A stretch of DNA of 64,000 nt from Bacillota bacterium (GCA_023460055.1 JAEWRJ010000015.1:2496-66495), one strand, 5' to 3'; shown: positions 1 through 48,713, counted from the first letter of the stretch. Notes: a model not told the origin generated them from the sequence alone. A program made the numbers and translations.

Positions 1-219
1 AGCTCGGAGGACATGCTGGAGCAAAACGACAACCAGCTGGACGGCATCATCAACAACCTGCCTTCCGACTCGGCGCAGCACACAGCTGAGAAACACATGT
101 CGATTGCGCGGGAACGCCAAGAGACAGCGCCAAGGCGGTCAGTGCTGGAGCAAATCAAGGGATCAACGCCGCAGCCTGCGCTGGCAAAGGCAGCCGCGCC
201 GCTGCAGGAGCCGCGTTAA
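1..219 (+). CDS. 3' end of an upstream ICE gene, product unknown (partial)
   Basis: The frame is open from the window edge to TAA at 217-219. No motif recognised. Confidence 0.35.
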   Translation, partial: SSEDMLEQNDNQLDGIINNLPSDSAQHTAEKHMSIARERQETAPRRSVLEQIKGSTPQPALAKAAAPLQEPR

Positions 220-284
220 TAGGAGCCATCCTGGATCATAATATCACGGTCTGCTAAGCTGTCAAAAACGAAAGGAGATACCCG

Positions 285-527
285 ATGACACAGATCATAA
301 AGCCCCGGAACCTGAGCGTTGATGAACAGCGCATGATAAGCATCTATTCCGCTGAAGCGGACACACGAGAGGAGACCATTGCGATGCTGGAAAAAGTGAC
401 CCGGCATCTGGAAGCGGACGAGGAGGAGCTGATGGCCCTGTGCCAAAGCACACTGGGCAAGCTGAGGGCTATGTCTGATGAAGAATACGCTCTTATTGAT
501 CCTTCTCCGATCATGTCAGGCATCTGA
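285..527 (+). CDS. Transposon-transfer assisting protein (TTAP-like small ICE protein)
   Basis: 80 aa with an SD (AAAGGAGA) upstream. The pattern LSVDEQRMISIY...LEK...LGKLRAMSDEEYALID resembles the small TTAP family of Firmicutes conjugative transposons, recalled from memory. Confidence 0.55.
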   Translation: MTQIIKPRNLSVDEQRMISIYSAEADTREETIAMLEKVTRHLEADEEELMALCQSTLGKLRAMSDEEYALIDPSPIMSGI

Positions 528-610
528 TATCCGCCTGAAACCTGAATAGACTTCACAGACAGCGGCAGGCATAGCGCTTGCCGCTGTCCGCTATCCAAAT
601 ATAAGGAGGG

Positions 611-6600: not shown

Positions 6601-9016
6601 TATACTGGTCGCGACCAAGAAAGACTTTGAAAAGAAGAGCCGGAAGCGTTTCGTTTCACGCATCGCCACAGGCGATTATGATGCCATCATCATGGGACAC
6701 AGCCAGTTTGAAAAGATACCGGTGTCCGCTGAGCGTCAGGAGCGCTTCCTTCAGGAACAGATTGATGAGATCAACGACGGCATTGAGGAGCTGAAGTCAT
6801 CGCGCGGTGAGCGGTTTACCATCAAGCAGATGGAGCGCACCCGAAAGCAATTGGAGGCCCGGCTGGATAAGCTGCATAAGGCTGAGCGCAAAGATGATGT
6901 CATCAGTTTTGAGCAGCTGGGAGTTGACAGGCTGTTTGTCGATGAGGCGCATCACTATAAAAATCTGTTCCTGTATACCAAGATGCGCAATGTCGCCGGG
7001 CTTTCCGCCACGGAGGCGCAGAAATCATCGGATATGCTGCTCAAGTGCAGGTATCTCGATGAGATCACAGGGGGCAAGGGGATTGTGTTCGCGACAGGTA
7101 CGCCTGTGTCCAACTCCATGACCGAGATGTACACCATGATGAGGTACCTGCAGCACGATACGCTTCTCAGGCATGGCCTGACGCATTTTGATGCCTGGGC
7201 CAGTACCTACGGCGAGACGCAGACGGTCATTGAGCTGGCTCCGGAGGGGACAGGCTATCGCGCGCGGACACGCTTCGCCAAGTTCTTCAACCTTCCTGAG
7301 CTGATGACGATGTTCAAGGGGGCAGCGGACATCAAGGTGAAGGATCAGCTGGATCTGCCTACGCCGGATGCGGTTTTCCATAATGTCATCGCGGAGCCGA
7401 CTGAGCATCAGAAGATGCTGGTCGGCGAGTTGTCAAAGCGGGCGGCTGAAGTTCACGGGAGGCAGGTCGATCCCAAGGAGGACAACATGCTCAAGATCAC
7501 CTCTGACGGCAGGAAGCTGGGGCTTGATCAGCGCATCATCAATCCGCTCTTGCCGGATGATCCCGGCAGTAAGCTTAACCTGTGTGTGGACAATGTGTTC
7601 AGGATATGGGATGAGTCGCAAGCCGACAGGCTGACGCAGCTGATTTTCTGTGATATCAGCACACCGCGCAAGAAGAGTTCAAAGGAGGAGAGTACCGCCG
7701 CGCAGGAGGATGAGCAGGGGACAGATGGCGTTGATGTGCGTGACTTGGATGCCCTGATGGATCATCATTCGGATACGGGCAATGGTTTCTGTGTCTATGA
7801 TGATATCCGGGCCAAGCTGATTGCCCGAGGCGTTCCCGCTGATGAGATTGCCTTCATTCATGACGCCAATACCGAGCTTCGAAAGAAAGAGCTGTTCGCC
7901 AGGGTGCGCTCCGGGCAGGTTCGTGTATTGCTTGGCAGTACCTTCAAAATGGGCAGCGGCACGAATGTGCAGGACAGACTGGTCGCCTTGCATGATCTGG
8001 ATTGCCCCTGGCGGCCGGGTGACTTGGAGCAGCGCGCCGGCAGGATCGTTCGTCAGGGCAACCTGAATGAACAGGTGCATATCTACAGGTATGCGACCAA
8101 CGGCACCTTTGACAGCTACCTGTGGCAAACAGTGGAGAATAAGCAGAAGTTCATCGGCCAGATCATGACGTCCCGCAGCCCGGTCAGAACCTGTGAGGAT
8201 ATAGATGAGACGGCGCTGTCCTATGCTGAGATCAAGGCCCTGTGCGCCGGGGATGAGCGGATCAAGGAAAAGATGGATTTGGATATGTCGGTGTCGAGGC
8301 TGAAGCTGCTGAAGTCGAATCACCTGAGCCAGCAGTTCAAGCTGGAAGACAGCCTGATGAAAAGGTTTCCTGAGCAGATCGTTCTGACCAAGGAGTATAT
8401 TGCCGGGTTTGAGCGCGATATAGCGGCCTTATCGTCGCATCCCTTGCCCGCAGAGGGTTTTGTTGGGATGAGGATAGGAGCGCTTGTCTATGAGGATAAG
8501 GAAAAGGCAGGTGTGGCCCTTCTGGAGGCTTGCGCGCGGCTGAGCGTCACGGGCGCTGAGCCCATCGGGCAGTACAGGGGTTTGGATATGTTTCTCGCGC
8601 TGGAGAACTTCGCGGCAACGTATCGGCTGACGCTCAAGGGCGCGATGGCGCATCCGGTGGAGCTGGGGCAGGATGCCAGGGGGAATATCACGCGCATCGA
8701 CAATGCCTTGGCGCAGGCGCAGGATAAGCTGGCGTTCCAAAGGGCGGCGCTGGATGATCTTTATATGCAGATAGAGTCTGCCAAGGCGGAAATAGGAAAG
8801 CCCTTTGCGCAGGAGGAGGAGCTGCGCGAAAAAATGGCCCGCCTGACGGAGCTGAATAGTTTGCTCAACATGGACGGCGCGCCTGCGCCCGTGCTCGCGG
8901 AGGCGGAGGAGGTCGTGGCGAAGTCTGTCAGACCGTCTGTCCTTCAGCAGCTGAGGCCGTCTGTTCCAGCTATCAGAACCGGGGAGGATCATAGGCCCCA
9001 TGAGGCGGTGAGGTAA
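611..9016 (+). CDS. Giant polyvalent conjugative-element protein: ArdC-N-like N-terminus, low-complexity linker, helical LPD-type modules, N6-adenine DNA methyltransferase and SNF2/DEAD-like helicase
   Basis: Single 2801-aa ORF. Methyltransferase motifs are ILEPSMGVGNFFG (SAM motif I) and ISNVPFG (NPPY-type motif IV). Helicase motifs are LAHEVGAGKT (Walker A), FVDEAHHYKN (DEAH box) and EQRAGRIVRQGN (motif VI). The N-terminus (SYDGWLAHDRQVKYRAKGIALMD) looks ArdC-N-like. The stop overlaps the mobC ATG (TAATG). Confidence 0.85.
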   Translation: MPLVITMMRFVDITKDAAGELTRSHRSWTAYLQAAGRLYTFTFPQQLAIYAQRPEATACTSYDGWLAHDRQVKYRAKGIALMDDHHLYPRLRYVFDVSDTYALDRSPAPTPWTISEDAQPVVAEAIYERYGVNLGKGLLAQLDALAHQEVQAYWEDFRSDILRIVDGSALDDYDHISIEQRFKAAASASLAYTLMDRCGLEPDRYFEPEDFAAVYDFDAKSVTALGSAISRISGEVLRGIAEIIKDEGQRKSAERTEDNERAELQAGRGVSGTESDAGRADGGSDRQVRPDAQDAFGEQQAPDLRPDDNGGDAVRAPGGDRQAGGGASGTDDAPGEGPDEPERGTQGQRPDGLGRADEQPESAGGRSHSGGSDLQLNQQLNLFESPEMTAGAVQQAERGSFSHFAFSYAEEETDHILRLGGNERQSRERIADQYMMSKPLEEIAAFLSREYVGGSGLVTDKGRLSAWYAEDGIHIARGNAARYISSAQVMTWQEAAARIGELLDEGRFASHAELAEANNHVRRRLADSLLFLYQDLSDTAHQYGHLTSIKVYHAMNHGERTARLAEALAEPRFLRDFTTEYQRFLNLYKDQPDLLRFHHHRTDELPARLRDLALPRQAYTSDMADVPQTGRFITEDEIDSNLAVRASAKEGSKERIYHYFIQKRSLNERAAFLKAEYGTGGYNHALPGSFHSGMDYSPKGIYLKKPECPDVVMTWNQAARRVDDLILHKRYPIPRTLDDPARTVTADDIDEALREGNSSTNSQDNAVDIIPDIRDDEDDVIDVEALKERLAQRGFHNGEFTDPEALDNDPFIRMVQATVDQIAEREDRLRQEAEKVRDPLTPPYKTGDSVYLEHKAFVIENISDHHVELRNPAQVYPIFRTESRQRFEQMLYQDGRNGHITEFLPADLNLTDNDLQDVLTSEGGLLIQRDKDYISGWIRSGEGNTRVAQKLSEIYAKTAETMNLVSGETIDYFASATGLEIDFQEDSVMKLSFSWREIAAVLRAMYLRERDGFFQEAPEREAVRLAGEPVYKLGDRVGFPGHDRDISGTIVYIGDKDIRIHTGPYSWSDEVVSRAFFEEAIRQDERNRALFIVPEDKPAPVITAQTVAVHPAIQNGLPYDIVFETLHIDQPEPHLASMQARDAAQKAENYRITDDALGRGGAKAKYGYNIEAIRTLKKIEAEGRSASPQEQDVLSRYVGWGALSQVFDKNAQSWEKEYQELSDLLSPEEFKAARSSTLNAHYTSPVVIRAIYTAIEAMGFDGGNILEPSMGVGNFFGLLPESLRASRLYGVELDQLTGRIARQLYPRADITIAGFESTDRRDFYDLAISNVPFGNYKVSDHAYDKLNYSIHDYFFAKALDQVRPGGLIAFITSHFTLDKQSDEVRAYIARRAEFLGAVRLPNTAFLRNAGTEVTSDIIFLKRREQPLEIAPDWLQLGQTDEGVPLNRYFLEHPEMVLGKMEMISGLYGKEAACVPVPGQELAEQLQAAMRNIRGEYEKAQPIEQGDAGIQDDIPADPDVRNYAYTIHRGEVYYRENARMRRPEISANAKDRIRGLIALRESVHRLIDLQMSDGAPEEGMQAARKELNRLYDAFSGRYGLINDRANAKAFSGDSSFYLLCSLEVLDEENRLKRKADMFTKRTIRPHQVATSVDTATEALAISIAERAGVDMPYMSGLTGKDEDTLYRELTGVIYKDFIDPVNGLSLYRTADDFLSGNVRLKLKKYKELVDRLPQEHHDLPALRVNVEALEAVQPADLEATDIEVRLGATWIDPAVIQKFMFETFLPSPYLRFGGLEVHYAPMTAEWSISGKNHVNFNDVNAYTNYGTERVSAYKILEESLNLRDVRVYDSYEDEHGNKKRVLNQNETTLAQTKQQVIKNAFVDWLWKDADRRRELVETYNVLFNSLRPREYDGQHLRLAGANPEIRLRDHQLNAIAHILYGENVLLAHEVGAGKTFEMVAAAMESRRLGLCSKSLIVVPNHLTEQWAAEFLYLYPAANILVATKKDFEKKSRKRFVSRIATGDYDAIIMGHSQFEKIPVSAERQERFLQEQIDEINDGIEELKSSRGERFTIKQMERTRKQLEARLDKLHKAERKDDVISFEQLGVDRLFVDEAHHYKNLFLYTKMRNVAGLSATEAQKSSDMLLKCRYLDEITGGKGIVFATGTPVSNSMTEMYTMMRYLQHDTLLRHGLTHFDAWASTYGETQTVIELAPEGTGYRARTRFAKFFNLPELMTMFKGAADIKVKDQLDLPTPDAVFHNVIAEPTEHQKMLVGELSKRAAEVHGRQVDPKEDNMLKITSDGRKLGLDQRIINPLLPDDPGSKLNLCVDNVFRIWDESQADRLTQLIFCDISTPRKKSSKEESTAAQEDEQGTDGVDVRDLDALMDHHSDTGNGFCVYDDIRAKLIARGVPADEIAFIHDANTELRKKELFARVRSGQVRVLLGSTFKMGSGTNVQDRLVALHDLDCPWRPGDLEQRAGRIVRQGNLNEQVHIYRYATNGTFDSYLWQTVENKQKFIGQIMTSRSPVRTCEDIDETALSYAEIKALCAGDERIKEKMDLDMSVSRLKLLKSNHLSQQFKLEDSLMKRFPEQIVLTKEYIAGFERDIAALSSHPLPAEGFVGMRIGALVYEDKEKAGVALLEACARLSVTGAEPIGQYRGLDMFLALENFAATYRLTLKGAMAHPVELGQDARGNITRIDNALAQAQDKLAFQRAALDDLYMQIESAKAEIGKPFAQEEELREKMARLTELNSLLNMDGAPAPVLAEAEEVVAKSVRPSVLQQLRPSVPAIRTGEDHRPHEAVR
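1386..1739 (+). CDS. tnpV: TnpV-like protein, ORF nested out of frame inside the polyvalent-protein gene
   Basis: 117-aa ORF in another frame of the 611-9016 gene, with ATG at 1386 preceded by AAGGA. MKELSYRREGAYLVPNL...IGRYGLMRRTHLENNRPLIY...LYAHLAEIDKQAEERLE...DPMAWVGLMNNLKAQAEEVILEDLIYS follows the TnpV family pattern as I remember it. The host frame is Gly/Asp/Arg/Pro low-complexity over exactly this interval. Confidence 0.5.
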   Translation: MKELSYRREGAYLVPNLMPDAQMAEAIGRYGLMRRTHLENNRPLIYDQMIMEGTLYAHLAEIDKQAEERLELMMRRGKARMNLSEELKDKDPMAWVGLMNNLKAQAEEVILEDLIYS

Positions 9017-9354
9017 TGGCCAACAGGCAAAGAGCTTGCCAGATAAAGTTCCGTGTGACTGAGGATGAGCTTGATTTGATCGAGCGGAAGATGGCACAGC
9101 TGGGGACGCGTAACAGGGAGGCGTATCTCAGGAAGATGGCCATAGACGGACTGGTGGTCAAGCTGAACCTGCCGGAGTTGAAGGAAATGATCTCTCTGCT
9201 TCGCCGGGCGAATCACAATATCAATCAGATTGCCAGACGGGCAAACGAGTCAGGCAGTATCTATGAGCAGGATATGGAAGATATCAAGGGGCATTTGGAT
9301 GAGATTTGGCAGGCCGCCAATCAGGTGCTGTCTTCTTTGGCGGCCCTGGATTAA
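9016..9354 (+). CDS. mobC: MobC-family relaxosome accessory protein (ribbon-helix-helix)
   Basis: 112 aa. IKFRVTEDELDLIERKMAQLG..NREAYLRKMAIDG...LLRRANHNINQIARRAN is the typical MobC (bacterial mobilisation protein) pattern. Confidence 0.8.
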   Translation: MANRQRACQIKFRVTEDELDLIERKMAQLGTRNREAYLRKMAIDGLVVKLNLPELKEMISLLRRANHNINQIARRANESGSIYEQDMEDIKGHLDEIWQAANQVLSSLAALD

Positions 9355-9414: not shown

Positions 9415-10356
9415 ATGAGTAAAAGATTAAGAATCATGGGATTGATATTGATGCTGGTATTTGTTGTCATATGTATCTTCATCAGCTGGGAATACTATGT
9501 AGAAACTGAGGAAATGAATACCTTCGCTTCCCTGGCTGAGATGGTCGAAGAACAACGAAAGCTTGATACAAGCAATGAAGGATCGTCATCAAATAGCTCA
9601 GAAAATCAGCCTGTTATATCAAGGCAAGCGGAGAACCAAAATGTTCAGCAGAAGTTGTTGCTGAACAAGGCTATGCAGATAGCCTCTACCGGTCCGATAA
9701 GCGGTGCGGGGATGCGCAGTACTCTATCTACTGAGCAGGATTATCTGGTCAGCGATGAGAATGGCATAGAAGAGAAGCGGATTCTTCCGCAGTATGAGGA
9801 TCTACACGAGCAGAATCCGCATCTGTATGGTTGGATACGTATCGATGGTACCAAGATTAACTATCCAATTATGTTTTCACCTGATGAACCTGAGAGATAC
9901 CTTGATAAGGACTTCTATGGAAAGAAAGCGAAATATGGTGTTCCTTTTATCGATGGGATAACTGATATTCAAGGTAGCCGTCATCTCCTTATCCATGGTC
10001 ACAATGCTCGAAGTGGCATTCTTTTTGGTGATCTGGATAGATATGGAAAAAAGTCCTTTTGGAAGGAGCACCGATACATCCGGTTTGACACCTTGTACGA
10101 GGAAAGGTTGTATGAGATTGTGGCGGTATGTCGTACAAGTACTTCAGAAAAAAAAGACGGACAAATAAGGTTTTTCGACTTTACAAATATATGGGATGAA
10201 GCTGCTATGATAGCATACATACAGTTTCTGTCGGAAAATGCAATGTATGATACTGGATTAACCATTGAACCTGACAGAGAGTTGATTACACTATCTACTT
10301 GTTCATATCATTCTGAAAATGGAAGGTTAATTATTATCGCAAAACAATCTAAGTGA
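9415..10356 (+). CDS. srtB: Class B sortase
   Basis: N-terminal TM segment, NPHLYGWIRIDGTKINYPIM, LIHGHNARSGILFGDLDRY and the catalytic ITLSTCSY (TLxTC) motif. SD AAAGGAAAAG upstream. Confidence 0.8.
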   Translation: MSKRLRIMGLILMLVFVVICIFISWEYYVETEEMNTFASLAEMVEEQRKLDTSNEGSSSNSSENQPVISRQAENQNVQQKLLLNKAMQIASTGPISGAGMRSTLSTEQDYLVSDENGIEEKRILPQYEDLHEQNPHLYGWIRIDGTKINYPIMFSPDEPERYLDKDFYGKKAKYGVPFIDGITDIQGSRHLLIHGHNARSGILFGDLDRYGKKSFWKEHRYIRFDTLYEERLYEIVAVCRTSTSEKKDGQIRFFDFTNIWDEAAMIAYIQFLSENAMYDTGLTIEPDRELITLSTCSYHSENGRLIIIAKQSK

Positions 10357-10520
10357 ATATTAAAGCAGAATAATATATGAGATGAAGCCACACTCCAAAC
10401 GAAAGCGCTATTGAAAGCATTATTCTTTCGCCTTAATAGTATTCTATCGACTAGTTAATCAAAATGGTATATAATTGGGATATATTCACTGGACTCGACT
10501 TTGTTTGAGGAGAAAAGGTA

Positions 10521-12596
10521 ATGAAACTAAAGACAATCCATATATCCAATTACCGAAAAATATATGATGTACAACTAAATATGGAAGATAGCATAACCAT
10601 TATTGCTGGAGCGAATAATAGTGGGAAAACCTCTCTTGTTGAGCTGCTTAAATCAGTTTTTGGGAGCGGAAAGTGCAAATTCGAGAGTGATGATTTTTCT
10701 GCTATAGAATGTCAAAAGTGGAGCAATAAAGTCTATCCTATGTGTCGTTCTGCATTTACTAATGGAAAACAAAAAGAAGAAATCGTAACAGAAATATGTG
10801 AAATAATTACCCAGGATGAGAAACCCGAAGATGCTATTATAATACCGCCAATTGAAGTGAAAATTCAAATTGATTATAATGAAAAAGAGGATGACATTCG
10901 CCATTTTGCTGATTATATTATGGAGCTTGACTCGAGCAATACAAGCTTTTACTTTATCTACCGTTACGGATTAAATAGGGATAGATTTTGGAAAAGCATA
11001 GATGCTGAGTACGAAAAGCTCTCTGTCCGATTCAGTAAGCTATCCGAAGACGAAGACAAGAACAAGGATATCGTTCGTGTTGTCAAAGAAATGCTCATAT
11101 CCCTATATGCAGGTTCATGCGAAGAAATGGCATACTTCTCTGATAAATTATATAAAAATAGAGTTGCTATGGATATATCATCATTTAAGAATCTATTTAA
11201 TTATAATAATATTATGGCCGGCCGAACTTTAGATGATGAAAATACCGATAGAACAAGAATTCTAAGCAAAAGCATGGTTGATATCGCCAGCCAAGAAGAG
11301 AGCTGGCAGGATTTGCTTTGCCGCCTTCCGGATCAAATTATTCAGCCTATTCAGCAAGCAAGGATTCAGGAAAGAGTTCGAGAAGCATCGCTTGATTCTT
11401 TACGTGTTACAATGGAGGCAGTTTCCAGAACCAACGGGGGACATGCCGGAAATATTGTAATTGACATGAACGTAACTGAAGATGCTGTCCATGCATTGCT
11501 GAAAAGTATAACTTCTGCAAAATATCAAGCGGATGACCACTATTTGAGAGAGTCTTCGCAAGGGTTAGGATATAGCAATCTTATCTATATCCATCTTCAA
11601 TTAGAGAGGTTCAAGAGAAGCATAGACCCTCTTCTTGTAAATATATTTATAATCGAAGAACCGGAAGCACATATGCATCCTCAAATGCAGAACGTTTTTG
11701 CCCAATACTTATTTGAGTATTACAATCAAGGCATAGGTATACAAGGGGTGCTCACAACGCACTCGCATGAGGTAGTTCGTTCTGCGAAAATCTCCCAGCT
11801 CAGGGTATTGCGTCAGGAAGAGCCTTTCAGATGCAGAATGTTTGACTTGCGCGAATTTCAAAACTCAATTGCATCATGTAAGGAGCTTCTTGAATTCTAT
11901 GATTTTTTCTACGCAGTCAATTTCCCTGATATTATTTTCGCTGACAAAATCATTATGTATGAAGGTGATACAGAACGAATGCTTATAAAAAGTGCATTGT
12001 GCTTAAAAGACTTTGAGTTTATAAGAGGACAGTACGTTTCTTTCGTTCAGGTTGGCGGAGCGTATGCTTATAACTATAAGTCTATTATTGACTTTTTGGG
12101 TATAAAGACTGTTTTGATAACGGATTTGGACTATGACAATGATTCATCAAGCGATACTGATGTCTTGGCCTCTACCACGACAAATTCAACGATTAATAAG
12201 TTTTCTAGAAGCGAACTAAATCAATCAAATCCAACTATACAAAAACTATATGATTGGCAAAATAAATTCGCTCCAATTGTAGTGGGGAGCATTTATCTTG
12301 CTTTTCAAGGGGAAAATGATCATTTTTCAAGGACTCTCGAAGAAGCAATGCTTGCAAAATACTACGGGGTTTCGGCATTAGATAAAAGGTCCGCGAATGA
12401 ATGGAAAAAGAATCGAGGAAAGGACAAACTTATATTCACCATTCCTAGGAAAGAAGAAACTTGCAGTATTCATGATATTGTTGAGCACACATCAAATAGA
12501 AAGACGGATTTTATGTATTCGGTTATCCTCAATAACTTGGTAAATGCAATGCTTCCAGCTTATATAAGGGAGGCATTGTTATGGCTAGCAAACTAA
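10521..12596 (+). CDS. gajA: OLD-family ATPase/Toprim nuclease (GajA-like, class 2 OLD)
   Basis: Walker A GANNSGKTS, signature-like SQGLGYSN, Walker B IFIIEEPEAHMHP and TTHSHE. C-terminal Toprim has MYEGDTE and ITDLDYD (DxD). SD GAGGAG upstream. The 3' end overlaps the next gene by 16 nt. Confidence 0.8.
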   Translation: MKLKTIHISNYRKIYDVQLNMEDSITIIAGANNSGKTSLVELLKSVFGSGKCKFESDDFSAIECQKWSNKVYPMCRSAFTNGKQKEEIVTEICEIITQDEKPEDAIIIPPIEVKIQIDYNEKEDDIRHFADYIMELDSSNTSFYFIYRYGLNRDRFWKSIDAEYEKLSVRFSKLSEDEDKNKDIVRVVKEMLISLYAGSCEEMAYFSDKLYKNRVAMDISSFKNLFNYNNIMAGRTLDDENTDRTRILSKSMVDIASQEESWQDLLCRLPDQIIQPIQQARIQERVREASLDSLRVTMEAVSRTNGGHAGNIVIDMNVTEDAVHALLKSITSAKYQADDHYLRESSQGLGYSNLIYIHLQLERFKRSIDPLLVNIFIIEEPEAHMHPQMQNVFAQYLFEYYNQGIGIQGVLTTHSHEVVRSAKISQLRVLRQEEPFRCRMFDLREFQNSIASCKELLEFYDFFYAVNFPDIIFADKIIMYEGDTERMLIKSALCLKDFEFIRGQYVSFVQVGGAYAYNYKSIIDFLGIKTVLITDLDYDNDSSSDTDVLASTTTNSTINKFSRSELNQSNPTIQKLYDWQNKFAPIVVGSIYLAFQGENDHFSRTLEEAMLAKYYGVSALDKRSANEWKKNRGKDKLIFTIPRKEETCSIHDIVEHTSNRKTDFMYSVILNNLVNAMLPAYIREALLWLAN

Positions 12597-14563
12597 ATAA
12601 TTGTTTTCTAATTAACGCCCCTGCAGGAAGTGGAAAGACGACACAGATAAAGGCAATGGTGCAAAAATATATTGTTGAGATGCCCGGAGATAACATTCTG
12701 TGTATTACTTACACCAACCGTGCTGCAGAAGAGCTGTCAAATGGAATTGAATCAAAAAATGTGTATATCGGTACTATACATTCTTTCCTTCATGCATTTA
12801 TGAAGCGGTATTTTACTCACCAAGATATTCTTGATTTATATTATGAAGTATATGGTGACCAAATTAAGGGACGCATTGAAAACCTTGAACAGACTGATTA
12901 TGTTGCAGATAGCAATAGTAAATATGTAGAAAAATATGGTGAGCTTAGCTACGAAGCAATTCGAAAAAATATAAAGACTCTTTCATATAATGAATCTCCA
13001 TTCAACTCTCTATATTATGGGGGGCTATCCCATGATGACTTAATAAGTTTTTCAAAACATATTTTTGATCGATATTCCATTATTGGGAAAATGATATCTT
13101 CAAAGTATCAGCATATTTTCATTGATGAATACCAGGATACAATGGCGGATGTTTTGAAAATATTTTATAAAAGTGTTGCTGGATCGAACACACATTTATA
13201 CTTGTTTGGGGATCGAATGCAGCAGATTTATAGGAATTATGATGGTTCTTTTGAAGAGCAATTTGAATTATTTGACACTACGCAGTCACTATTGATTAAT
13301 CATCGATCAGTGACGGCCATTGTGAAACTATTAAATAAAATATGTAATGATCCATCTTTTGATCAAGATAATTCGCGCAAAATGAAGTCAGTAAGCGCGG
13401 ATTTTTTACCGCGCATTGTTATTAGCGACAACATTGATGAATCGATTAATGGAATAAAAGAATCTGATTCAAGTGCCTTGGTGCTGTATCTTCTGAACAG
13501 AGAGCGCTTTGGCTATATTGGTGCCCTTAACCTTTATCAAGCATTTTCTGGGATGGATAAGTACTCATTTGGTAAAACCTATACAGCAGTGGATGTACTA
13601 ACAACGCCCTATGATGTAAACCCAGATCCTTTGATAAAAGTATTATACTGCATTGTTCATATGGCAGACTGCTATCAGAAGGAGCAGTATGGCTCAATTA
13701 TTCAGACGTTAAAAACATATAAGTCAATGTTCTGTAAGGACAGCTGGTATATCAAAACGCATGATGACAAGAAAAAACTGCTTAGCAAATTGAAGAAAGT
13801 GTTTGCGGGTTTTAAGGATGAGAATAAAACAATAGCTGATTTGCTAACTATGCTTTTAGATACTTCAATAGCGGAAAACACTTATGTGGAAGGTATTTAT
13901 GCCGATAGAGATTATCACCAGGTATTCGATGTGCCTGTTATTGAATTAAAGCGAGTTATCGAATATCTGGGAAATCCTAAAGTATCAACGCAGCATGGAG
14001 TGAAGGGGGAAAGCCATGATAGCGTGGTGTTTGTCGCAGATAACTGTAGTACTAATCCCGTAGTCCATATGTATCGGTTTTTTGACATGTGGGGAAATTT
14101 CTCGGTTTCATTAAAGCCATTTAGCCAGTTTTATTACAGCTATATTACTGAATTGGCTGATTTACAGTACACTATTGGTATAAAAATAAGTGATCTAAAA
14201 AAGGACACTTATACTCAGCACGAAAAGGCAATCAGTGAAAAAATCGCTACAATAATTGACAAGTTTACGAATAATTCATATTTTATGTATCTGTGTATGG
14301 AAAAATATGACCAATACTTAAAAAAACCGGGAGTGACAAAAGCCAAAGACTGTTTGAAAGAGAGCACTGTATTCGGTGTGCTAAGTGCTTATAAACTGTT
14401 TTATGTTGGATGTTCACGAGCAAGAAAAAATCTCACTATTCTTTTGGATCGATCAAAGGTCATAGGAGATTTTGAAAGACAGAAACGCAGATTTATTGAA
14501 ATAGGATTTACAATCTTACAGGCTGATTCTACATTCAATTCAATATCGGAGGGCGGTCAATAA
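12581..14563 (+). CDS. gajB: UvrD/PcrA-like superfamily 1 helicase (GajB-like)
   Basis: APAGSGKTT (Walker A), IFIDEYQDT (motif II), LINHRS, TQHGVKGESHDSVVFV and LFYVGCSRARKNL (motif VI). SD GGGAGG upstream. Translationally coupled to the OLD gene. Confidence 0.8.
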   Translation: MASKLNNCFLINAPAGSGKTTQIKAMVQKYIVEMPGDNILCITYTNRAAEELSNGIESKNVYIGTIHSFLHAFMKRYFTHQDILDLYYEVYGDQIKGRIENLEQTDYVADSNSKYVEKYGELSYEAIRKNIKTLSYNESPFNSLYYGGLSHDDLISFSKHIFDRYSIIGKMISSKYQHIFIDEYQDTMADVLKIFYKSVAGSNTHLYLFGDRMQQIYRNYDGSFEEQFELFDTTQSLLINHRSVTAIVKLLNKICNDPSFDQDNSRKMKSVSADFLPRIVISDNIDESINGIKESDSSALVLYLLNRERFGYIGALNLYQAFSGMDKYSFGKTYTAVDVLTTPYDVNPDPLIKVLYCIVHMADCYQKEQYGSIIQTLKTYKSMFCKDSWYIKTHDDKKKLLSKLKKVFAGFKDENKTIADLLTMLLDTSIAENTYVEGIYADRDYHQVFDVPVIELKRVIEYLGNPKVSTQHGVKGESHDSVVFVADNCSTNPVVHMYRFFDMWGNFSVSLKPFSQFYYSYITELADLQYTIGIKISDLKKDTYTQHEKAISEKIATIIDKFTNNSYFMYLCMEKYDQYLKKPGVTKAKDCLKESTVFGVLSAYKLFYVGCSRARKNLTILLDRSKVIGDFERQKRRFIEIGFTILQADSTFNSISEGGQ

Positions 14564-14721
14564 TTTATGTTATGAGATTAGTCTTTAGGCACTTAAAAGA
14601 CGCTGAAAAACGAAATGTTGGAGGGAGAGTTATGGAACGGTGGTACACTCTTCGATAAGATAAACGTATACTGCACATTAGCTAGAAGACTATGGGAAAT
14701 AATATATAGGAGGGATGATAC

Positions 14722-16281
14722 ATGCTTCTAACAGTTGGATCGTCGGTTAAGGGAGAAGGAAACGATTTTTATGTGCTAGATGAGATTATTGGGAAAGGTA
14801 GCTTTGGCTATGTTTTCAAGGCTCGTCGAAAAAAAGATGACGCAGTTTTTGCTGTGAAAGCAATGCTCCCGTCGTTTGGTGATTCTTATTCAGCAGCAAG
14901 CTTCAAAAATGAGATGCGTTTAGCTGAAGCAGTCAAAGGTGATAATATTATTCAATATGAGTTTGTCCATTCAGGCGAAGCATATCCTGAGTTACCGCCA
15001 TACATAGTGATGGAATATGCTGATGGAGGGACGTTGACGCAACAATTGAAGCACAGGCAACAAATAGGAAAGCCTCTGGAACTGGTGGAATTATTAGATA
15101 TATTTAGGCAGCTTGCTCATGGGATGGATGAAATAAACCGTACTCTTGTTCATCGGGATATAAAGCCTGACAATATCTTATTATGCGGGAACACCCTGAA
15201 AATTTCTGATTTTGGTTTGTCAAGAATTGCAATTGAAGGAACTCGGATGTTGACATTTAAAGGTTGGGGTACTCCGCTTTATATGGCTCCAGAGGCATGG
15301 GATTATGGCAAGAATACTATTCAGATGGATATCTATTCAATGGGTATTATCTTTTACGAATTGGCAACATTTAGATACCCTTATTTGCCAGTTCCAAAGA
15401 CCGATGATGACTGCAAAAGCGCTCACCTACACTCAGCAATACAGAATCTTAATAGTGTCAGTAGTTTTTTGACTCCAAGCCTTATCTCTGTTATCAACCG
15501 AATGTTAGAAAAATCCACACAACGGCGGTTTGATAATTGGAAGGATATTATCCGACTGATTGAAGAACAAAAAGAACCTGATTCTATGATTGACAAGTTA
15601 GTTACTGCTACCATTACAGCAAAAAATGCAGAAGACATTGCTCGGCAGGAGAGGGAGAGTAACATTCGACAGACAGTAAAGGAAAAAGATGATTTTTGCA
15701 AATTAGTTCGTTCGCAGTTTGATAATACGATTGTTGCATCGATCACCAGTTATATTGAAAAGGTTAATGAAAAATATGCAGGAAATGAAAAAATCACCTT
15801 CTCGAAAAGTAATGGAGTAGGGTATCAAGCAGAACGCTTTACTTGGGAAATGATTATTCCACCTGACAATGTAATTTCGATTAAGATGGAAGCCATTCTT
15901 AAAGAGAACTATAAGCGGAAAGTCAGAACTAATAGGTTTTGGGGAGAAGAGGGAGTACGAACTGAAAATTACATCCCACAATTCAGTGGGAGGAATATAC
16001 ATGCTTGGGGAGAGGTGAAAAACAAAGCGGGTTATGGTTTCAATTTGTTGTTGATAGATAGTGGTGAAATATATGGAGATTGGCACATAATGAATAATAA
16101 AAATAACCTTAGCTATATGAATAACAAGGAGCGTCGTGAGCCTTTCTCCTTTAGTTTGAATGAACTTCCAGAAGAGATAGACAGGGTGCAAATAACGCAT
16201 CTCTATAGAGCAGTATTTGAGCCTTTTAGTGAGTCATCATTGTTAGATATAATCTCGAAATTAATTTATGAACTAAAATAA
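14722..16281 (+). CDS. Hanks-type Ser/Thr protein kinase with a roughly 240-aa C-terminal domain of unknown type
   Basis: GKGSFGYVFKA glycine loop, FAVKAM lysine, HRDIKPDNILL catalytic loop, ISDFGLSR and YMAPE. SD GGAGGG upstream. I recognise no motif in the C-terminal half. Confidence 0.85.
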   Translation: MLLTVGSSVKGEGNDFYVLDEIIGKGSFGYVFKARRKKDDAVFAVKAMLPSFGDSYSAASFKNEMRLAEAVKGDNIIQYEFVHSGEAYPELPPYIVMEYADGGTLTQQLKHRQQIGKPLELVELLDIFRQLAHGMDEINRTLVHRDIKPDNILLCGNTLKISDFGLSRIAIEGTRMLTFKGWGTPLYMAPEAWDYGKNTIQMDIYSMGIIFYELATFRYPYLPVPKTDDDCKSAHLHSAIQNLNSVSSFLTPSLISVINRMLEKSTQRRFDNWKDIIRLIEEQKEPDSMIDKLVTATITAKNAEDIARQERESNIRQTVKEKDDFCKLVRSQFDNTIVASITSYIEKVNEKYAGNEKITFSKSNGVGYQAERFTWEMIIPPDNVISIKMEAILKENYKRKVRTNRFWGEEGVRTENYIPQFSGRNIHAWGEVKNKAGYGFNLLLIDSGEIYGDWHIMNNKNNLSYMNNKERREPFSFSLNELPEEIDRVQITHLYRAVFEPFSESSLLDIISKLIYELK

Positions 16282-16504
16282 ACACTCTCACCAAAATGGT
16301 GTGATCGGTTCGTCTGGTTTTTGTATTTATGAATAAAATATAGTTAGCAGCGAGTTTTCATATTGCTATGCAAGCTGTGCGGTCTTGTTGTCGCTTGTTC
16401 TTGGCATTTTCAAATTATCAAGAAGTTGTCTAATTGTCAAAAAACAGTTGAAGCATCATGTTTGACGCTTACACATCAAACGATGATATGAATCTGTTTT
16501 TTTA

Positions 16505-16933
16505 CTACTTGCCCAGAATAAACTTATCTAACCTATCTTTGTCTCTGATCTGGAGGCCTGCCAACTCAGCAAGATAACATTTTTGCAGGTATTCTTCACG
16601 AGAATCAACAGCATCACTTATTGTTACTTCTATATTATCTGGCCATATTAGATTAAGCCATCCGGTTCTCAAGAAGCGGCTTAGTATATGTTTTCCACGA
16701 TACTCTTCTTTGATTATCCAGTGAACATCAAAATTTCCATATCTCAAAATGATTCCTGCTTTACTCCTGCAATGGATAAGTACAATAACCTCATAAACGC
16801 TGGACTGAGTAATACAGGATGAGTCTGGCTCTTGAAACATTTGAAAGCAGTGATATGCTTTATCAGGTATAAGAACTTTGCCAGCAGCCACATCGCACTC
16901 ATTAAGTAAAGCAAGTAAGGATTCATTTGTCAT
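16505..16933 (-). CDS. Small hypothetical protein, possibly GNAT-like, convergent with the kinase gene
   Basis: 142 aa counted from the ATG with SD GGGAGG (MTNESLL...). IIKEEYRGKHILSRFL weakly resembles GNAT motif A. Confidence 0.45.
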   Translation of the reverse strand: MTNESLLALLNECDVAAGKVLIPDKAYHCFQMFQEPDSSCITQSSVYEVIVLIHCRSKAGIILRYGNFDVHWIIKEEYRGKHILSRFLRTGWLNLIWPDNIEVTISDAVDSREEYLQKCYLAELAGLQIRDKDRLDKFILGK

Positions 16934-17330
16934 AAGGATACCTCCCATTTACGATTTTCGACACCATATACATATCTGGAGATTAAGCTTTAATGCTGAT
17001 TTACATTCTATTCCAGTATTGCAATTCTATCATACATGGCAATGAAGGACTACATAAATACAGTGTCAATACGTTGAGAAATAACCTGGCAGTTTGCACA
17101 CCAGCTATGTATGGTTCACTAAGGATTTTCGTCGGGCAATCCAATAGATTTAATGGCCTCCCCCGTCGCCATAGTGATAGAGTACCCGATAGGACAGGCT
17201 GAAAACTGTCGAAATCGAAAAGTGGTGAATTTTGACCAGGGGAACACCTTCATGCTCAGAAACCTTGTTTCTGCTGTGTTCTGATGCTTTGTTTGTGTAA
17301 GGAGAGTCGGGAGACAACAATATATAGCGG

Positions 17331-17359
17331 TTGCGCAATTAAATCATGTGGATTATAAT
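17331..17359 (+). promoter_or_regulatory. Sigma-A-type promoter of the polymerase module
   Basis: TTGCGC (17331-17336), a 17-nt spacer, then TATAAT (17354-17359). Confidence 0.55.
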
Positions 17360-17370
17360 TCATCTCATAA

Positions 17371-17390
17371 ATGAGAACAATAGTTCTCAT
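17371..17390 (+). promoter_or_regulatory. LexA (Cheo/SOS) box
   Basis: Perfect palindrome ATGAGAAC-AATA-GTTCTCAT containing GAAC-N4-GTTC, the Gram-positive LexA operator core. It lies between the -10 box and the SD of the polymerase gene. Confidence 0.7.
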
Positions 17391-17407
17391 TTGAAAGGAG
17401 GGGTTGT

Positions 17408-18685
17408 GTGGATCGCGTCATACTGCATTGCGACGCCAATAGCTTCTACGCATCGTGCGAGCTGGTGTATCATCCTGAGCTGCGCGGATTGCCAATGTCT
17501 GTTGCGGGCGATGGAGATCAGCGGCATGGCATTATCCTTGCATCCACGCCTGAAGCCAAACGTTGCGGCATTAAGACCGGCATGGTGACTTGGGAGGCGA
17601 AGAAGTTATGCCCTAATTTGATCACGATGCCTGCAAACTTCGAAAGATATCAAAATTTTTCACGCCGTCTCCGGGCAATGTTCCGTGAGTATACGCCTAA
17701 TGTAACGCCATACGGCTTAGATGAAGCCTGGGTTGATCTGACTGGCAGGGGTGTCACCATCGATGATGGCACTATGATTGCCCAGACCCTGCGGCAAAGA
17801 GCCAAAGATGAGCTTGGATTGACCCTTTCAGCAGGAATTTCATTTACGTATTGCTTTTCGAAATTGGGGTCTGACATGAAGAAGCCCGATGCCTCAACGA
17901 TTATCTCACGGGAGAACTATCAGCAGCTGGTCTGGCCGCTGCCGGCGGGCGATCTCCTGTTTGTTGGACCCCACACCGTGCCGAAATTGGCCGCATGCGG
18001 CATCCGCACCATCGGGGACATTGCCAACGCTCCTGAAGGACTCTTAGAATCTTTGTTTGGAAAAGTGGGGCTGATGCACGTCCGTCACGCTACAGGGCAG
18101 TACGACAAACCGCCTATCCCGCCGGAAGAGATGGAGTCTGTAGGTCACTCTGTCACTGCTCCCAGGGATATGGAATCCATCTCGGATGTCAGGTGCGTGT
18201 ATACAGCCTTGGCGGAGGCAGTCTCTATGCGGATGCGTCATTCGGGTGTGGTCGGCCGATGCATCAACATTCATGTCCGCGACAGCAAGCTCAATGTCAG
18301 AGGATGCCAGAAAACCATTGGGTATCACACATCCCTTAGCCGAGAAATTGTTCATGTTGCGATGGAACTTTTTTCCGCCAAACAGTATGAACGAATGCTT
18401 CCGCTCCGCTCTATCGGCGTTAGTGTCTCATCACTACGACACGCGACAGATCCCGTTCAGCTTGACATCTTCGGTGACGAAAAGCGCAGGCAAAAGGAAA
18501 TCAGCCTTGCAGGAACCGTTGATGAGCTTCGGAGCCGCTTTGGAACGATGATGATTCGGCGCGGAAATGTTCTGGCAAGTCCCTCTTTTGCGAATATCAA
18601 TGCATTTGATGATCACACGATATACCCTGGCGGTGATCGTGAGAAGAAAGGTGGAAGCAGATGCAAAAACTACCTCGGCCATTAG
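17408..18685 (+). CDS. Y-family (DinB/UmuC-like) translesion DNA polymerase
   Basis: GTG start after SD AAAGGAGGGG. VILHCDANSFYASCE and the following palm motifs are typical of the ImpB/MucB/SamB family. Confidence 0.85.
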   Translation: MDRVILHCDANSFYASCELVYHPELRGLPMSVAGDGDQRHGIILASTPEAKRCGIKTGMVTWEAKKLCPNLITMPANFERYQNFSRRLRAMFREYTPNVTPYGLDEAWVDLTGRGVTIDDGTMIAQTLRQRAKDELGLTLSAGISFTYCFSKLGSDMKKPDASTIISRENYQQLVWPLPAGDLLFVGPHTVPKLAACGIRTIGDIANAPEGLLESLFGKVGLMHVRHATGQYDKPPIPPEEMESVGHSVTAPRDMESISDVRCVYTALAEAVSMRMRHSGVVGRCINIHVRDSKLNVRGCQKTIGYHTSLSREIVHVAMELFSAKQYERMLPLRSIGVSVSSLRHATDPVQLDIFGDEKRRQKEISLAGTVDELRSRFGTMMIRRGNVLASPSFANINAFDDHTIYPGGDREKKGGSRCKNYLGH

Positions 18686-18954
18686 CGATCAGACAGAATG
18701 TCAAGGTTGATGTTGAGATCGATGAGGACGGAGAGATTGTACCTAAAAGGATATTCTGGCCTGGGCGTGAAGGGGGATGGCGAGAAGTCGAGAAAGGGTT
18801 CAAATCCGGACCGGGTGTCGCGCGTAAGGCGGGCGGTGCTGGTCTGCGCTTTGAAGTTCGCATAGAGAACTATATCTTCGAGCTCTTCCTTGTGGATGGC
18901 ATATTCTTCTTCGAGCGAACCCAGCAGGGTATAATACCCTTACGACAAGCTTAA
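18661..18954 (+). CDS. Small conserved-looking protein coupled to the polymerase, function unknown
   Basis: 97 aa with SD AAAGGTGGAAG. It overlaps the polymerase 3' end by 25 nt. ...ARKAGGAGLRFEVRIENYIFELFL resembles a small family I recall next to Clostridial Y-polymerases. Confidence 0.5.
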   Translation: MQKLPRPLAIRQNVKVDVEIDEDGEIVPKRIFWPGREGGWREVEKGFKSGPGVARKAGGAGLRFEVRIENYIFELFLVDGIFFFERTQQGIIPLRQA

Positions 18955-18964
18955 GGAGGCTTCT

Positions 18965-19531
18965 ATGTGCGGACGATTCTACGCGCCCCCCATTACCATC
19001 GAGGAGCTGCGCTCAGTTGTTAAGGACATCGAGGAAGAGCTGGCGCGCAAGCAGCAGACAGGCGAATACGGGAAGGAATCATTCATCGTTCCCACTTTGC
19101 CGACAATGGCCATTACAGCCGAAGGAGCCAAAGTAATGACTTTCGGATGGAAGAAGGCGCAAAAAGACATGATGCTGAATGCCAGGTGTGAAACCTTGAC
19201 GGGAAAGCCTATGTTTGTGCCTGCTTTTCGAGCAGGGAAGCGCTGTATTCTTCCTGCGACGCGGTTCTTTGAAAAAAAGGGTTTATTCGCCCCCATCAAT
19301 GGTCAGCTTATGTTCATGGCGGGAATATTTGATAACATCGGTTCGCAAGAGTATGACCAGTTTCTTGTTATCACGCGGGATGCTGATCCAGTGATAGCGC
19401 CATATCACCACAGGATGCCGCTGCTGCTTCCCAGCGAGGAATTGCGCAAAGCGTGGTTACATAGTGACACACTGGCGGAAGAATTACTTGATATGCCGGT
19501 GGATATTCCGCTCAAAGATATTACTCAGTGA
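18965..19531 (+). CDS. SOS-response-associated peptidase (SRAP/YedK/HMCES family) abasic-site processing protein
   Basis: Starts MCGRF (catalytic Cys2), the hallmark of the SRAP family. 188 aa. Confidence 0.8.
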   Translation: MCGRFYAPPITIEELRSVVKDIEEELARKQQTGEYGKESFIVPTLPTMAITAEGAKVMTFGWKKAQKDMMLNARCETLTGKPMFVPAFRAGKRCILPATRFFEKKGLFAPINGQLMFMAGIFDNIGSQEYDQFLVITRDADPVIAPYHHRMPLLLPSEELRKAWLHSDTLAEELLDMPVDIPLKDITQ

Positions 19532-19606: not shown

Positions 19607-21010
19607 ATGGCAACAACCAGAATCATTGCAATGCACCGCAACAAGGGCAAGTCAGTTGCACAGTGCATCAAAGACAGAACCGGGTACGCTTTCAACCCGG
19701 ACAAAACAAATGATGGAGAGCTTGTAACCTGTTATGAATGCGATATCAAATCTGTCGATGCGGAGTTTGCTTTATCTAAACGCGAATATCAGCAAATAAC
19801 AGGTAGGGTGCAGCAGAGTGATGTGATTGCCTATCAAATCAGGCAATCATTCAAGCCTGGGGAGATAAGCGCTGATGATACAAACCACATTGGCTATAAG
19901 CTTGCCATGCGCTTTTTGAAAGGACATCATGCCTTTTTTGTAGCAACTCATGTTGATAAAGCGCACATTCATAATCATATCATATGGAACTCAACGTCTT
20001 TGGACTGTACATACAAGTTCAGAGATTTTCTTGGTTCCGGCAGGGCAGTCGCAAGGCTGAGCGATTTGATCTGTACAGAACACCAGCTATCTGTTGTTGA
20101 TAATCCGCAAGAAAGCGGCATGAAATACAACAAGTGGCTCGGAAATCGGGCTGTCCCCTCTCATCGTGATGAACTGCGGGCTATCATTAATGAGGCATTG
20201 TCACACCAGATAAAAGATATTGACGGTATGTTAGATTTTCTGTGCGTAGCAGGCTGGGAAGTGAAGCGCGGGAAGGACATCAGTTGCCGCGGCTCTGGGC
20301 ATAAAAGATTCATCAGGCTCCATACACTTGGCGATGGTTATGATGTGGACGGCCTCAGCAGACTCCTGAAGGGTAAGCATAGACCGGCATCGTCAAGTCG
20401 AAAGACTGAAAATATCAGATCAGAGCGGATGCAGCTGTTAATAGACATTCAAGCGAAACTCTCACAAGGCAAGAGTAAAGGCTTTGGGCGATGGTCGAAA
20501 ATCTCAAATTTGAAACAGATGGCTAAAGCACTGAATTATCTGACAGAGCATGGATTGACTGATTACGATAAGCTGCGTGAGCAGGCGAAGGAAGTGACTG
20601 AGCATTATCATACACTCTCGGCCGGCTTAAAGGAGCTTGAAGCGCGTCTGGCCGATATTGGCATACTGAAAACGCATGTCATCAACTACGTGAAGACGCG
20701 GGATATCTATGTGGCATACAGGAAAGCTGGCTATTCCAAGCGGTTTGCTGCTGAGCATCAACAGGAGATCGCTTTGCATAAAGCAGCCAAGCAAGCCTTC
20801 GACGCCCTGGGCACGAAAAGAATACCGACAGTGCGCAGTCTTCAAGATGAATACGCGGTCTTGCTGCAAAAAAAGAAGGATGCTTATGCGGCGTATCGGT
20901 CTGTAAGAGATAGGATGAGAACGATAAACACTGTCAAAGCAAACATTGACACGATTCTGCACAGCGAAGGCCAAGTGTCCGCTACCCAAAGGGGCAGGTC
21001 TGAACGATAG
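19607..21010 (+). CDS. MobA/VirD2-family relaxase
   Basis: Relaxase/mobilisation nuclease pattern, with the N-terminal Tyr region (YAFNPDK, CYECD) and the histidine triad THVDKAHIHNHIIWNS. Confidence 0.8.
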   Translation: MATTRIIAMHRNKGKSVAQCIKDRTGYAFNPDKTNDGELVTCYECDIKSVDAEFALSKREYQQITGRVQQSDVIAYQIRQSFKPGEISADDTNHIGYKLAMRFLKGHHAFFVATHVDKAHIHNHIIWNSTSLDCTYKFRDFLGSGRAVARLSDLICTEHQLSVVDNPQESGMKYNKWLGNRAVPSHRDELRAIINEALSHQIKDIDGMLDFLCVAGWEVKRGKDISCRGSGHKRFIRLHTLGDGYDVDGLSRLLKGKHRPASSSRKTENIRSERMQLLIDIQAKLSQGKSKGFGRWSKISNLKQMAKALNYLTEHGLTDYDKLREQAKEVTEHYHTLSAGLKELEARLADIGILKTHVINYVKTRDIYVAYRKAGYSKRFAAEHQQEIALHKAAKQAFDALGTKRIPTVRSLQDEYAVLLQKKKDAYAAYRSVRDRMRTINTVKANIDTILHSEGQVSATQRGRSER

Positions 21011-46839: not shown

Positions 46840-47055
46840 ATGGATACCGGAGTCGACAGTAGGACGGTAAATGTTTTGAACAACAGTTGTACTCGACGCG
46901 CATACAAGGTTGAGGAAATAGCGGAGATGCTTGGCATAGGCCGCACAGCGGCCTATAACCTTATCCATAGCGGAAAACTCAAGGTTGTGCGCATCGGGAC
47001 ATCAATCCGAGTACCCAAGCATTCCTTTGATGCGTGGTTGGAGAGCCAGAATTAA
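46840..47055 (+). CDS. xis: Excisionase (MerR/Xis-type HTH)
   Basis: ATG at 46840 after SD AAAGGAGG. YKVEEIAEMLGIGRTAAYNLIHSGKLKVVRIGTSIRVPKHSFDAWL is the typical excisionase HTH_17 pattern. Confidence 0.75.
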   Translation: MDTGVDSRTVNVLNNSCTRRAYKVEEIAEMLGIGRTAAYNLIHSGKLKVVRIGTSIRVPKHSFDAWLESQN

Positions 47056-47075
47056 CAAACAGGAGGGTTAATTAC

Positions 47076-48470: not shown

Positions 48471-48472
48471 CC

Positions 48473-48494
48473 AGTCTTAGCAAAGTCTTAGCAA
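48473..48494 (+). repeat. Perfect tandem 11-bp direct repeat AGTCTTAGCAA x2; candidate integrase arm sites
   Basis: It starts 3 nt after the int stop. A third TTAGCAAA copy lies at 48530-48537, between int and the tRNA. Confidence 0.6.
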
Positions 48495-48637
48495 ACCTAT
48501 GTACGTGGTGAAATACGGTTCAAAACGAATTAGCAAAATGGGTATCAAGGTCAGCTGTTACGCAAGCGATACGACGGGGTATGATTGACGATCGGCCGAA
48601 TAAAAAAGCTGCAAAGTCATTGACTTTACAGCGATTG

Positions 48638-48713
48638 TGGCACTCCCGGGCAGAGTCGAACTGCCGACCCCTCGCTTAGGAGGCGAGTGCTCTTTCCACT
48701 GAGCTACGGGAGT
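48638..48713 (-). tRNA. tRNA-Arg (anticodon CCT), CCA encoded
   Basis: Hand-folded cloverleaf: ACTCCCG TA GCTC AGTGGAAA GAGC A CTCGC CTCCTAA GCGAG GGGTC GGCAG TTCGACT CTGCC CGGGAGT G CCA (76 nt). Confidence 0.85.

Follow-up and report, generated by a model that had tools for sequence, protein, structure and literature searches.

Do a Gabija pair and a serine/threonine kinase gene that follows it on the same strand form one three-gene defence system, or do two separate modules lie next to each other? This question is raised by positions 10521-16281 of a 64,000-nucleotide (nt) stretch of DNA from a Bacillota bacterium (GCA_023460055.1, JAEWRJ010000015.1:2496-66495), hereafter called the window, in which positions are counted from the first letter. 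An earlier note, made from the sequence alone, had left the choice between a three-gene Gabija variant and two adjacent defence genes. Here, we conclude, with a probability of roughly 0.7, that the locus holds two independent cargo modules, a two-gene Gabija system and a stand-alone kinase, side by side in a hotspot of an integrative element. The features of the locus are as follows (aa, amino acids; ORF, open reading frame).

10521-12596, plus strand: gajA, 691 aa, class 2 OLD-family ATPase and Toprim nuclease
12581-14563, plus strand: gajB, 660 aa, UvrD/PcrA-like superfamily 1 (SF1) helicase
14564-14721, plus strand: spacer between gajB and the kinase gene, 158 nt
14722-16281, plus strand: kinase ORF, 519 aa, Hanks-type Ser/Thr kinase with a C-terminal domain
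14770-15531, plus strand: kinase domain, residues 17-270 (Pfam Pkinase, 143 bits)
15586-15774, plus strand: predicted long helix, residues 289-351 (AlphaFold2), joining the kinase domain to the C-terminal domain
15775-16281, plus strand: C-terminal alpha/beta domain, residues 352-519, and the stop codon

The layout that had been described was fully reproduced, with three same-strand ORFs at these coordinates, an overlap of 16 nt between the gajA and gajB reading frames and a gap of 158 nt before the kinase gene. The AT-rich composition said to be common to the three genes also held, their G+C content (GC) being 0.37 (gajA), 0.35 (gajB) and 0.38 (kinase gene), a range of 0.35-0.38 against 0.47-0.57 in the backbone genes of the element. 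Shared strand, shared composition and a 158-nt gap with no terminator-like site would all suit a single Gabija variant, in which the kinase regulates GajAB, is activated by it or acts as a second effector. Moreover, the trio is kept in three other contigs with an identical kinase (L081-L083 among the loci that we collected). However, these contigs are copies of the window element (GajA 99.9-100% and GajB 100% identical), and therefore they count as one observation.

The comparison made for this question covered about 16 independent loci with full-length kinase homologues and five Gabija pairs of the same subtype as that in the window. Searches by tblastn with GajA and GajB gave matches only in L081-L083 and none in the roughly 16 other kinase loci, whose gene lists and annotations likewise contain no OLD/UvrD pair. 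Conversely, none of the five Gabija contexts encodes a kinase of this family. The co-occurrence check proposed in the earlier note has thus been carried out, and its outcome (0 of about 16 kinase contexts with GajA or GajB, 0 of 5 Gabija contexts with the kinase) is that no conserved association between the kinase and OLD/UvrD pairs was found in unrelated genomes. The gene 3' of gajB is different in all five contexts: a GNAT gene, a SEC-C protein gene, an HTH or integrase gene, genes without assigned function and a Fic-like gene. With no conserved third gene, the pair behaves as a two-gene unit. Literature searches returned no Gabija variant with a kinase, in agreement with the earlier note, whose author knew of none. 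The 'GajC' of type II Gabija, a lead from the literature, was rejected, since this protein is MazF-like and takes the place of GajA (PMC13069673).

The most direct evidence for the independence of the kinase is provided by related element backbones that carry the kinase alone. The window holds an integrative mobile element, whose parts are listed here together with the AT-rich island that contains the locus.

611-9016, plus strand: giant protein gene, 2801 aa, with SNF2/helicase domains and a methylase-like NVPF motif
9016-9354: nikA/mobC-like gene
9415-17400: AT-rich cargo island with the sortase gene, gajA, gajB, the kinase gene and a 147-aa ORF
9415-10356, plus strand: sortase B-like gene (TIGR03064 at 124 bits, below the cut-off of 154)
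16505-16948, minus strand: 147-aa ORF, convergent with the kinase gene
17408-19531, plus strand: Y-family (DinB/PolIV-like) polymerase gene, 97-aa ORF and SRAP-domain gene, just downstream of the island
19607-21010: relaxase gene
47034-48470: integrase (tyrosine recombinase) gene
48638-48713: tRNA-Arg(CCT)
from 48881: class II aminoacyl-tRNA synthetase gene

The island is flanked by the nikA/mobC-like gene (9016-9354) on one side and by the Y-family polymerase and relaxase genes on the other, and its genes, including the sortase gene (GC 0.40) and the 147-aa ORF (GC 0.38), lie at 0.35-0.40 against 0.47-0.57 in the backbone. In two metagenomic relatives, L107 (7-8901) and L108 (10-8892), the gene of a giant protein 56% identical to the 611-9016 product over about 1640 aa is followed after no more than about 130 nt by a kinase gene, and there is no Gabija. 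In L101, L102 and L106 a NikA-like gene immediately precedes the kinase gene, and in L101 the sequence runs on to a relaxase gene with 47% identity to that of the window. The interval between nikA and the relaxase gene is found in several states: the two genes overlap in L121 (9136-10864), enclose the kinase alone in L101 (5356-9451) and in the window lie 10 kb apart with mixed cargo between them, namely the sortase gene, gajAB, the kinase gene, the 147-aa ORF and the polymerase/SRAP genes. Since related backbones carry the kinase alone in the slot where the window has this 10-kb stack, the interval is a cargo hotspot. Together with the absence of kinase-bearing Gabija from the literature searched and from the contexts compared above, the lone kinase in the same slot of homologous backbones makes a three-gene Gabija variant very improbable. 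Of the choices left by the earlier note, the evidence thus favours two adjacent genes, of which the kinase is a putative defence gene.

Transcription signals point in the same direction in the relatives. The kinase gene of L101, L107 and L108 is preceded at close range by a hairpin with a T-run and by a -10-like box, and because of these signals it appears to be its own transcription unit there. In the window, the spacer (14564-14721) has no terminator-like site and its RNA has no significant fold (z -0.12). A ribosome-binding site, GGAGGG, lies 8 nt before the kinase ATG, and a -10-like TATACT in the spacer aligns loosely with -10-like boxes that precede the homologous kinase genes. These two signals aside, no conserved leader was found upstream of the kinase homologues.

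The remaining genes of the island and element can be dealt with briefly. The 147-aa ORF has no Pfam, PADLOC or NCBIfam match. Nor did it have a match in the further loci of the kinase family that were searched (L001 and L084-L111), which rules it out as a kinase partner. The AT-rich island begins with the sortase B-like gene, which has no obvious substrate gene beside it. Further along the element, the AT-rich stretch 23800-46000 contains five ORFs of 343-450 aa without a Pfam match at an expectation value (E) of 1e-5, and one 646-aa protein with a CBM_4_9 carbohydrate-binding domain. Beyond tRNA-Arg the GC climbs from about 0.46-0.51 to above 0.6, and the element probably has its right end and its attachment site at 47034-48713. 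Giant SNF2/methylase-like proteins are typical of mobile elements. The earlier note had placed the genes in a cargo slot of an integrative and conjugative element; the relaxase, NikA/MobC-like protein, giant protein, integrase and tRNA-Arg are indeed present, but no type IV secretion genes were identified within the window. On a Bacillus cereus plasmid (L124, 9678-11281), a kinase homologue adjoins YolD-like and Y-family polymerase genes; the kinase and Y-family polymerase genes are either recurrent neighbours or have come together by coincidence as element cargo.

The position of the kinase gene in these backbones also bears on a different proposal, that the kinase serves the element itself, as an anti-defence or host-takeover kinase that on entry disarms the defences of the recipient or reprograms the host. 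It recurs in the mobilisation region, between a nikA-like or giant-protein gene and the relaxase gene, and it is found on plasmids and genomic islands as well. Moreover, there is a precedent in phage T7, where a kinase of a mobile element broadly disarms defences (PMC13645617), and by analogy the window kinase could do the same. However, the gene lists seen for some homologues in chromosomal loci contain no element genes, and the kinase of a Providencia plasmid is encoded on the strand opposite to the flanking runs of small genes, which is unlike a co-transcribed entry module. We therefore regard an element-serving kinase as unlikely.

Returning to the two modules in turn, the OLD/UvrD pair is, as far as sequence can tell, a self-contained Gabija of a long subtype, and the pair itself is ordinary. 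GajA matches the PADLOC GajA model PDLC00082 at 986 bits, with residues 1-690 aligned to positions 1-693 of 694, and GajB matches the GajB model PDLC00109 at 848 bits, with residues 1-645 aligned to positions 1-644 of 647. A match to a GajA model with an adjacent, same-strand match to a GajB model is what the catalogues call Gabija in the PADLOC/DefenseFinder sense, and the Gabija identity proposed in the earlier note is borne out by these full-length matches. The same is true of its claim that 10521-12596 has all ATPase and Toprim motifs of class 2 OLD nucleases: Pfam places AAA_15 at residues 1-419 and OLD-like_TOPRIM at 472-537, and the motif check found the Walker A motif GANNSGKT (30), EEPE (379), the Toprim glutamate in YEG (480) and DLDYD (535) all intact. 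GajB is a UvrD-type SF1 helicase (Pfam UvrD-helicase) with the motifs GSGKT (16), DEYQD (182) and GCSRA (610). Thus an OLD ATPase/Toprim gene stands in tandem with a UvrD/PcrA/Rep-like helicase gene, the arrangement that defines class 2 OLD. Searched against PDB sequences, GajA finds as its closest solved structure the class 2 OLD nuclease of Thermus (6p74; 35 bits, E 5e-8), while the match to the class 2 OLD catalytic region 6nk8 is very weak (E 0.42). As an aside, GajB is also a full-length match to RTasHel, the PADLOC model of a reverse transcriptase-associated helicase (DRT), at 248 bits.

The earlier note had remarked that both proteins look longer than the prototypes. The B. cereus VD045 prototypes are about 578 aa (GajA) and 494 aa (GajB). 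The greater length is not an anomaly, however, because the PADLOC models of the subtype have 694 and 647 positions and five homologous pairs have the same proportions. In all five independent contexts, GajA is 691-694 aa, GajB is 646-651 aa and the genes overlap by 16 nt; GajB homologues at 55-70% identity are 645-653 aa long. The window GajB is 9-14 aa longer than its nearest homologues, which cover only 98% of its length. The pair resembles the prototype in being a two-gene operon, in the translational coupling of an OLD ABC-ATPase/Toprim nuclease to a UvrD-like SF1 helicase and in its location on a mobile element. It differs from it in length (691 and 660 aa) and in being very divergent in sequence: structures of B. 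cereus GajB match the window GajB weakly (35 bits, residues 9-230 only), and shorter GajA subfamilies are related at the profile level only (e.g. PDLC00071 at 4e-38).

Two observations on the surroundings of related pairs may be added. In L112 (2911-8745), gajAB of the same subtype, a GNAT gene and two small ORFs lie between ORFs of 119 and 74 aa with CGGC domains, an arrangement that suggests insertion of the block into a CGGC-domain gene. A protein of about 600 aa with a SEC-C motif is 61% identical between L118 (7034-8854), where its gene directly follows gajAB in Acetobacterium, and L084 (16587-18368), where it lies 5 kb downstream of a kinase homologue. This may be another mobile gene of defence islands.

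The second module is a complete Hanks kinase, as the earlier note had claimed: the Pkinase domain spans residues 17-270, and the catalytic motifs GKGSFG, AVK (K46), HRDIKPDN, DFG and APE are all intact, so that the protein looks catalytically competent. AlphaFold2 models the full-length protein with a mean local confidence (pLDDT) of 85 and a predicted template modelling score (pTM) of 0.77, in three parts: a kinase domain (1-281), whose activation loop is disordered, a helix (289-351) about 63 residues long and a compact alpha/beta domain (352-519). Residues 325-519 modelled separately reach a pLDDT of 87.5 and a pTM of 0.83. The C-terminal half was described as matching nothing recognisable, and our searches agree, although the domain itself comprises only about 170 aa. 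It gave no significant match in Pfam (best E 0.09) or among PDB sequences (best E 0.36) and none in PADLOC, and Foldseek with the C-terminal model found no fold match in PDB or BFVD (best E 0.17 and 0.18; template modelling score < 0.3). With the full-length model Foldseek returned kinase domains only, the best being the Stk1/PknB kinase domains of Staphylococcus aureus. Family members share a mean pairwise identity of 59% in the kinase domain, 39% in the helix, which is least conserved, and 44% in the C-terminal domain. The latter has invariant polar and aromatic positions in NxxYAG, YIPQ, GFN, YGDW, NxNN, EPFxFxxxELPxE and THxY. This conservation suggests a defined binding pocket or interface, not a rapidly diversifying surface.

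We compared the kinase with the known systems that it could belong to, and membership in each was rejected by full-length criteria. The best PADLOC match for the kinase domain is MAD6 of the methylation-associated defence system (MADS) at 195 bits, but the match is confined to positions 42-358 of the 659 in the model, and the NCBIfam score is 109 against a cut-off of 460; no other mad genes occur near the kinase in the window. PD-T4-6 of Escherichia coli is likewise a single-gene eukaryotic-like kinase, and many of its PADLOC models match the kinase domain at up to 149 bits. However, these alignments stop by residue 399, most of them before 330, and none enters the C-terminal domain. In the family members of E. 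coli (17 of 5426 genomes) the PD-T4-6 matches also fall short of that domain. These models are known to be non-specific for Hanks kinases and to catch housekeeping PASTA kinases (PMC11514479). Stk2, the staphylococcal abortive-infection kinase, offers the best functional analogy, as a single-gene Hanks kinase on a mobile element whose non-kinase region could sense infection. Yet its PADLOC model PDLC02375 (500 positions, kinase from about 112) is matched at 112-315 only, at about 65 bits, in the family members tested. Stk2 is not among the 25 best PADLOC models for the window kinase, and no Staphylococcus member occurs among the homologues listed. Two further candidates were dismissed, CapK as an anti-sigma-type kinase upstream of immune operons and not a Hanks kinase (PMC13373217), and the kinases of DefensePredictor as HipA-type or nucleotide kinases.

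The kinase domain is most similar to PknB/Stk1, and this raises the possibility of an ordinary signalling or regulatory Hanks kinase of the element or host with no role in conflict. That PD-T4-6 models pick up housekeeping PASTA kinases (PMC11514479) would fit such a role, as would one homologue that lies among metabolic and regulatory genes. Against the PASTA kinases themselves, the NCBIfam score is 147 bits with a cut-off of 450, Pfam detects no PASTA domain, and the model has the helix and the alpha/beta domain. Moreover, no cognate phosphatase gene is adjacent in the gene lists or annotated loci. The distribution, 17 of 5426 E. coli genomes, unrelated phyla and mostly mobile elements, is also not that of an ordinary kinase; being sparse, scattered and mobile, it fits an accessory conflict gene and not a core regulator. 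An ordinary kinase is therefore distinctly unlikely.

More than 1000 kinase homologues were found, and those listed are mostly 500-525 aa and aligned over 97-100% of the query. A profile of the C-terminal domain matched 216 clusters, defined at 50% identity, among 1.84 billion representative proteins. Where the matches listed are in proteins of about 490-540 aa, the domain lies after residue 320 or so. All members of 490-600 aa that were scanned have an N-terminal Pkinase domain in Pfam, and the 490-501-aa proteins checked among the matches to part of the profile are kinase fusions. Of four short partial-profile matches scanned (283-304 aa), two are kinase fragments and two have no informative Pfam match. 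Because scanned full-length carriers all have a kinase domain and shorter matches look like fragments, the C-terminal domain appears to be exclusive to this kinase family. Members occur in Clostridia, Bacilli, E. coli, Providencia, Planctomycetes and Ignavibacteria. A scan of genome contigs with an alignment of the full-length kinase keyed on HRDxKPxN and DFG, and 79 of the 80 loci it returned encode unrelated kinases, leaving only L001 as a family member. The C-terminal alignment of 7 closer sequences yielded 12 metagenome loci, and the C-terminal profile two loci on viral contigs; a search of viral contigs with GajB found none. Taken together, this is a small, phylogenetically scattered and mobile family that is undescribed and has no model in current defence catalogues. 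In all loci examined the kinase is encoded by a solo gene, mostly on mobile elements.

The neighbourhoods of the homologues are varied. Besides an Ignavibacteria contig, the two viral contigs and ten further metagenome contigs, homologues were found on a B. cereus conjugative plasmid, on the Providencia plasmid and in an E. coli genomic island, and in one locus the gene lies between a Fic gene and an integrase gene. Some have defence genes as neighbours: Gabija in the window, PDC-S06 with Bil-like and TIR genes in L084, ThsB-TIR, PDC-S53, and the Fic gene that is accompanied by an integrase gene. In the subsurface locus L084, a homologue 66% identical to the window kinase stands between RadC and a PDC-S06 ATPase gene with integrases nearby. 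Upstream of it (1-6490) are a TIR-domain gene and a Prok-E2/JAB/ThiF (Bil-like) cluster, then RadC, which indicates a dense defence island. In Paradesulfitobacterium the homologue follows ThsB-TIR and Bro-N genes, and PDC-S53 lies near a homologue in one context.

How might the two modules act? Gabija is summarised as a GajA-GajB complex with DNA cleavage upon infection (PMC13069673). By analogy with the Gabija systems studied, GajA and GajB of the window would form a complex. Infection would then relieve nucleotide inhibition, whereupon the OLD-type ATPase/Toprim nuclease would cut DNA, and the UvrD-like GajB would act on DNA ends, such that phage replication stops. For the kinase, the best guess is a sensor kinase for abortive infection. 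Its C-terminal domain would sense a cue associated with infection or transfer, and the helix would relay the signal, probably via dimerisation and trans-autophosphorylation of the activation loop. The activated kinase might then phosphorylate proteins of host or invader and abort the infection in the manner of Stk2. Kinase and Gabija would not need to interact. We tentatively propose, at somewhat less than even odds, that the kinase is an undescribed, scattered single-gene abortive-infection system in which the C-terminal domain is an infection sensor that switches the kinase via a helical stalk.

Several points weigh against this picture of an independent Gabija and a defensive kinase. At the window locus, co-transcription and some cooperation of gajAB and the kinase are possible, because there is no recognisable terminator in the spacer and the three genes have strand and composition in common. 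The sample is modest, at about 16 plus five contexts, and Gabija was sought mainly by tblastn with this subtype and in Pfam gene lists, such that an OLD/UvrD pair could escape detection if it were very divergent and its locus unannotated. For the Gabija mechanism, PDB searches with E up to 1 failed to retrieve B. cereus GajA, also when a profile of 4 sequences was used. As the window GajA is so far from the biochemically studied B. cereus protein, applying the published mechanism to it is an extrapolation. For the kinase, the argument for defence is one of guilt by association. Several neighbours of its homologues have no PADLOC match and some homologues are in plain chromosomal or non-defence settings, one of them at a chromosomal site between AraC regulator and tautomerase genes. 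Set beside the related backbones with a lone kinase, these points leave two independent modules as our preferred reading.

In summary, the Gabija pair is a new member of a long, divergent subtype that is not known to have been characterised biochemically. The kinase represents a compact family that is easy to test, being encoded by a solo gene, with about 510 aa and a C-terminal fold that matches no solved structure and no predicted viral one. If it is a defence gene, it would bring a new sensor module to the few kinase-based immune systems of bacteria, and current tools, which see only a generic kinase domain, would mislabel or miss the family. Moreover, the locus illustrates that the stacking of unrelated defence genes in a hotspot can mimic a multi-gene system.

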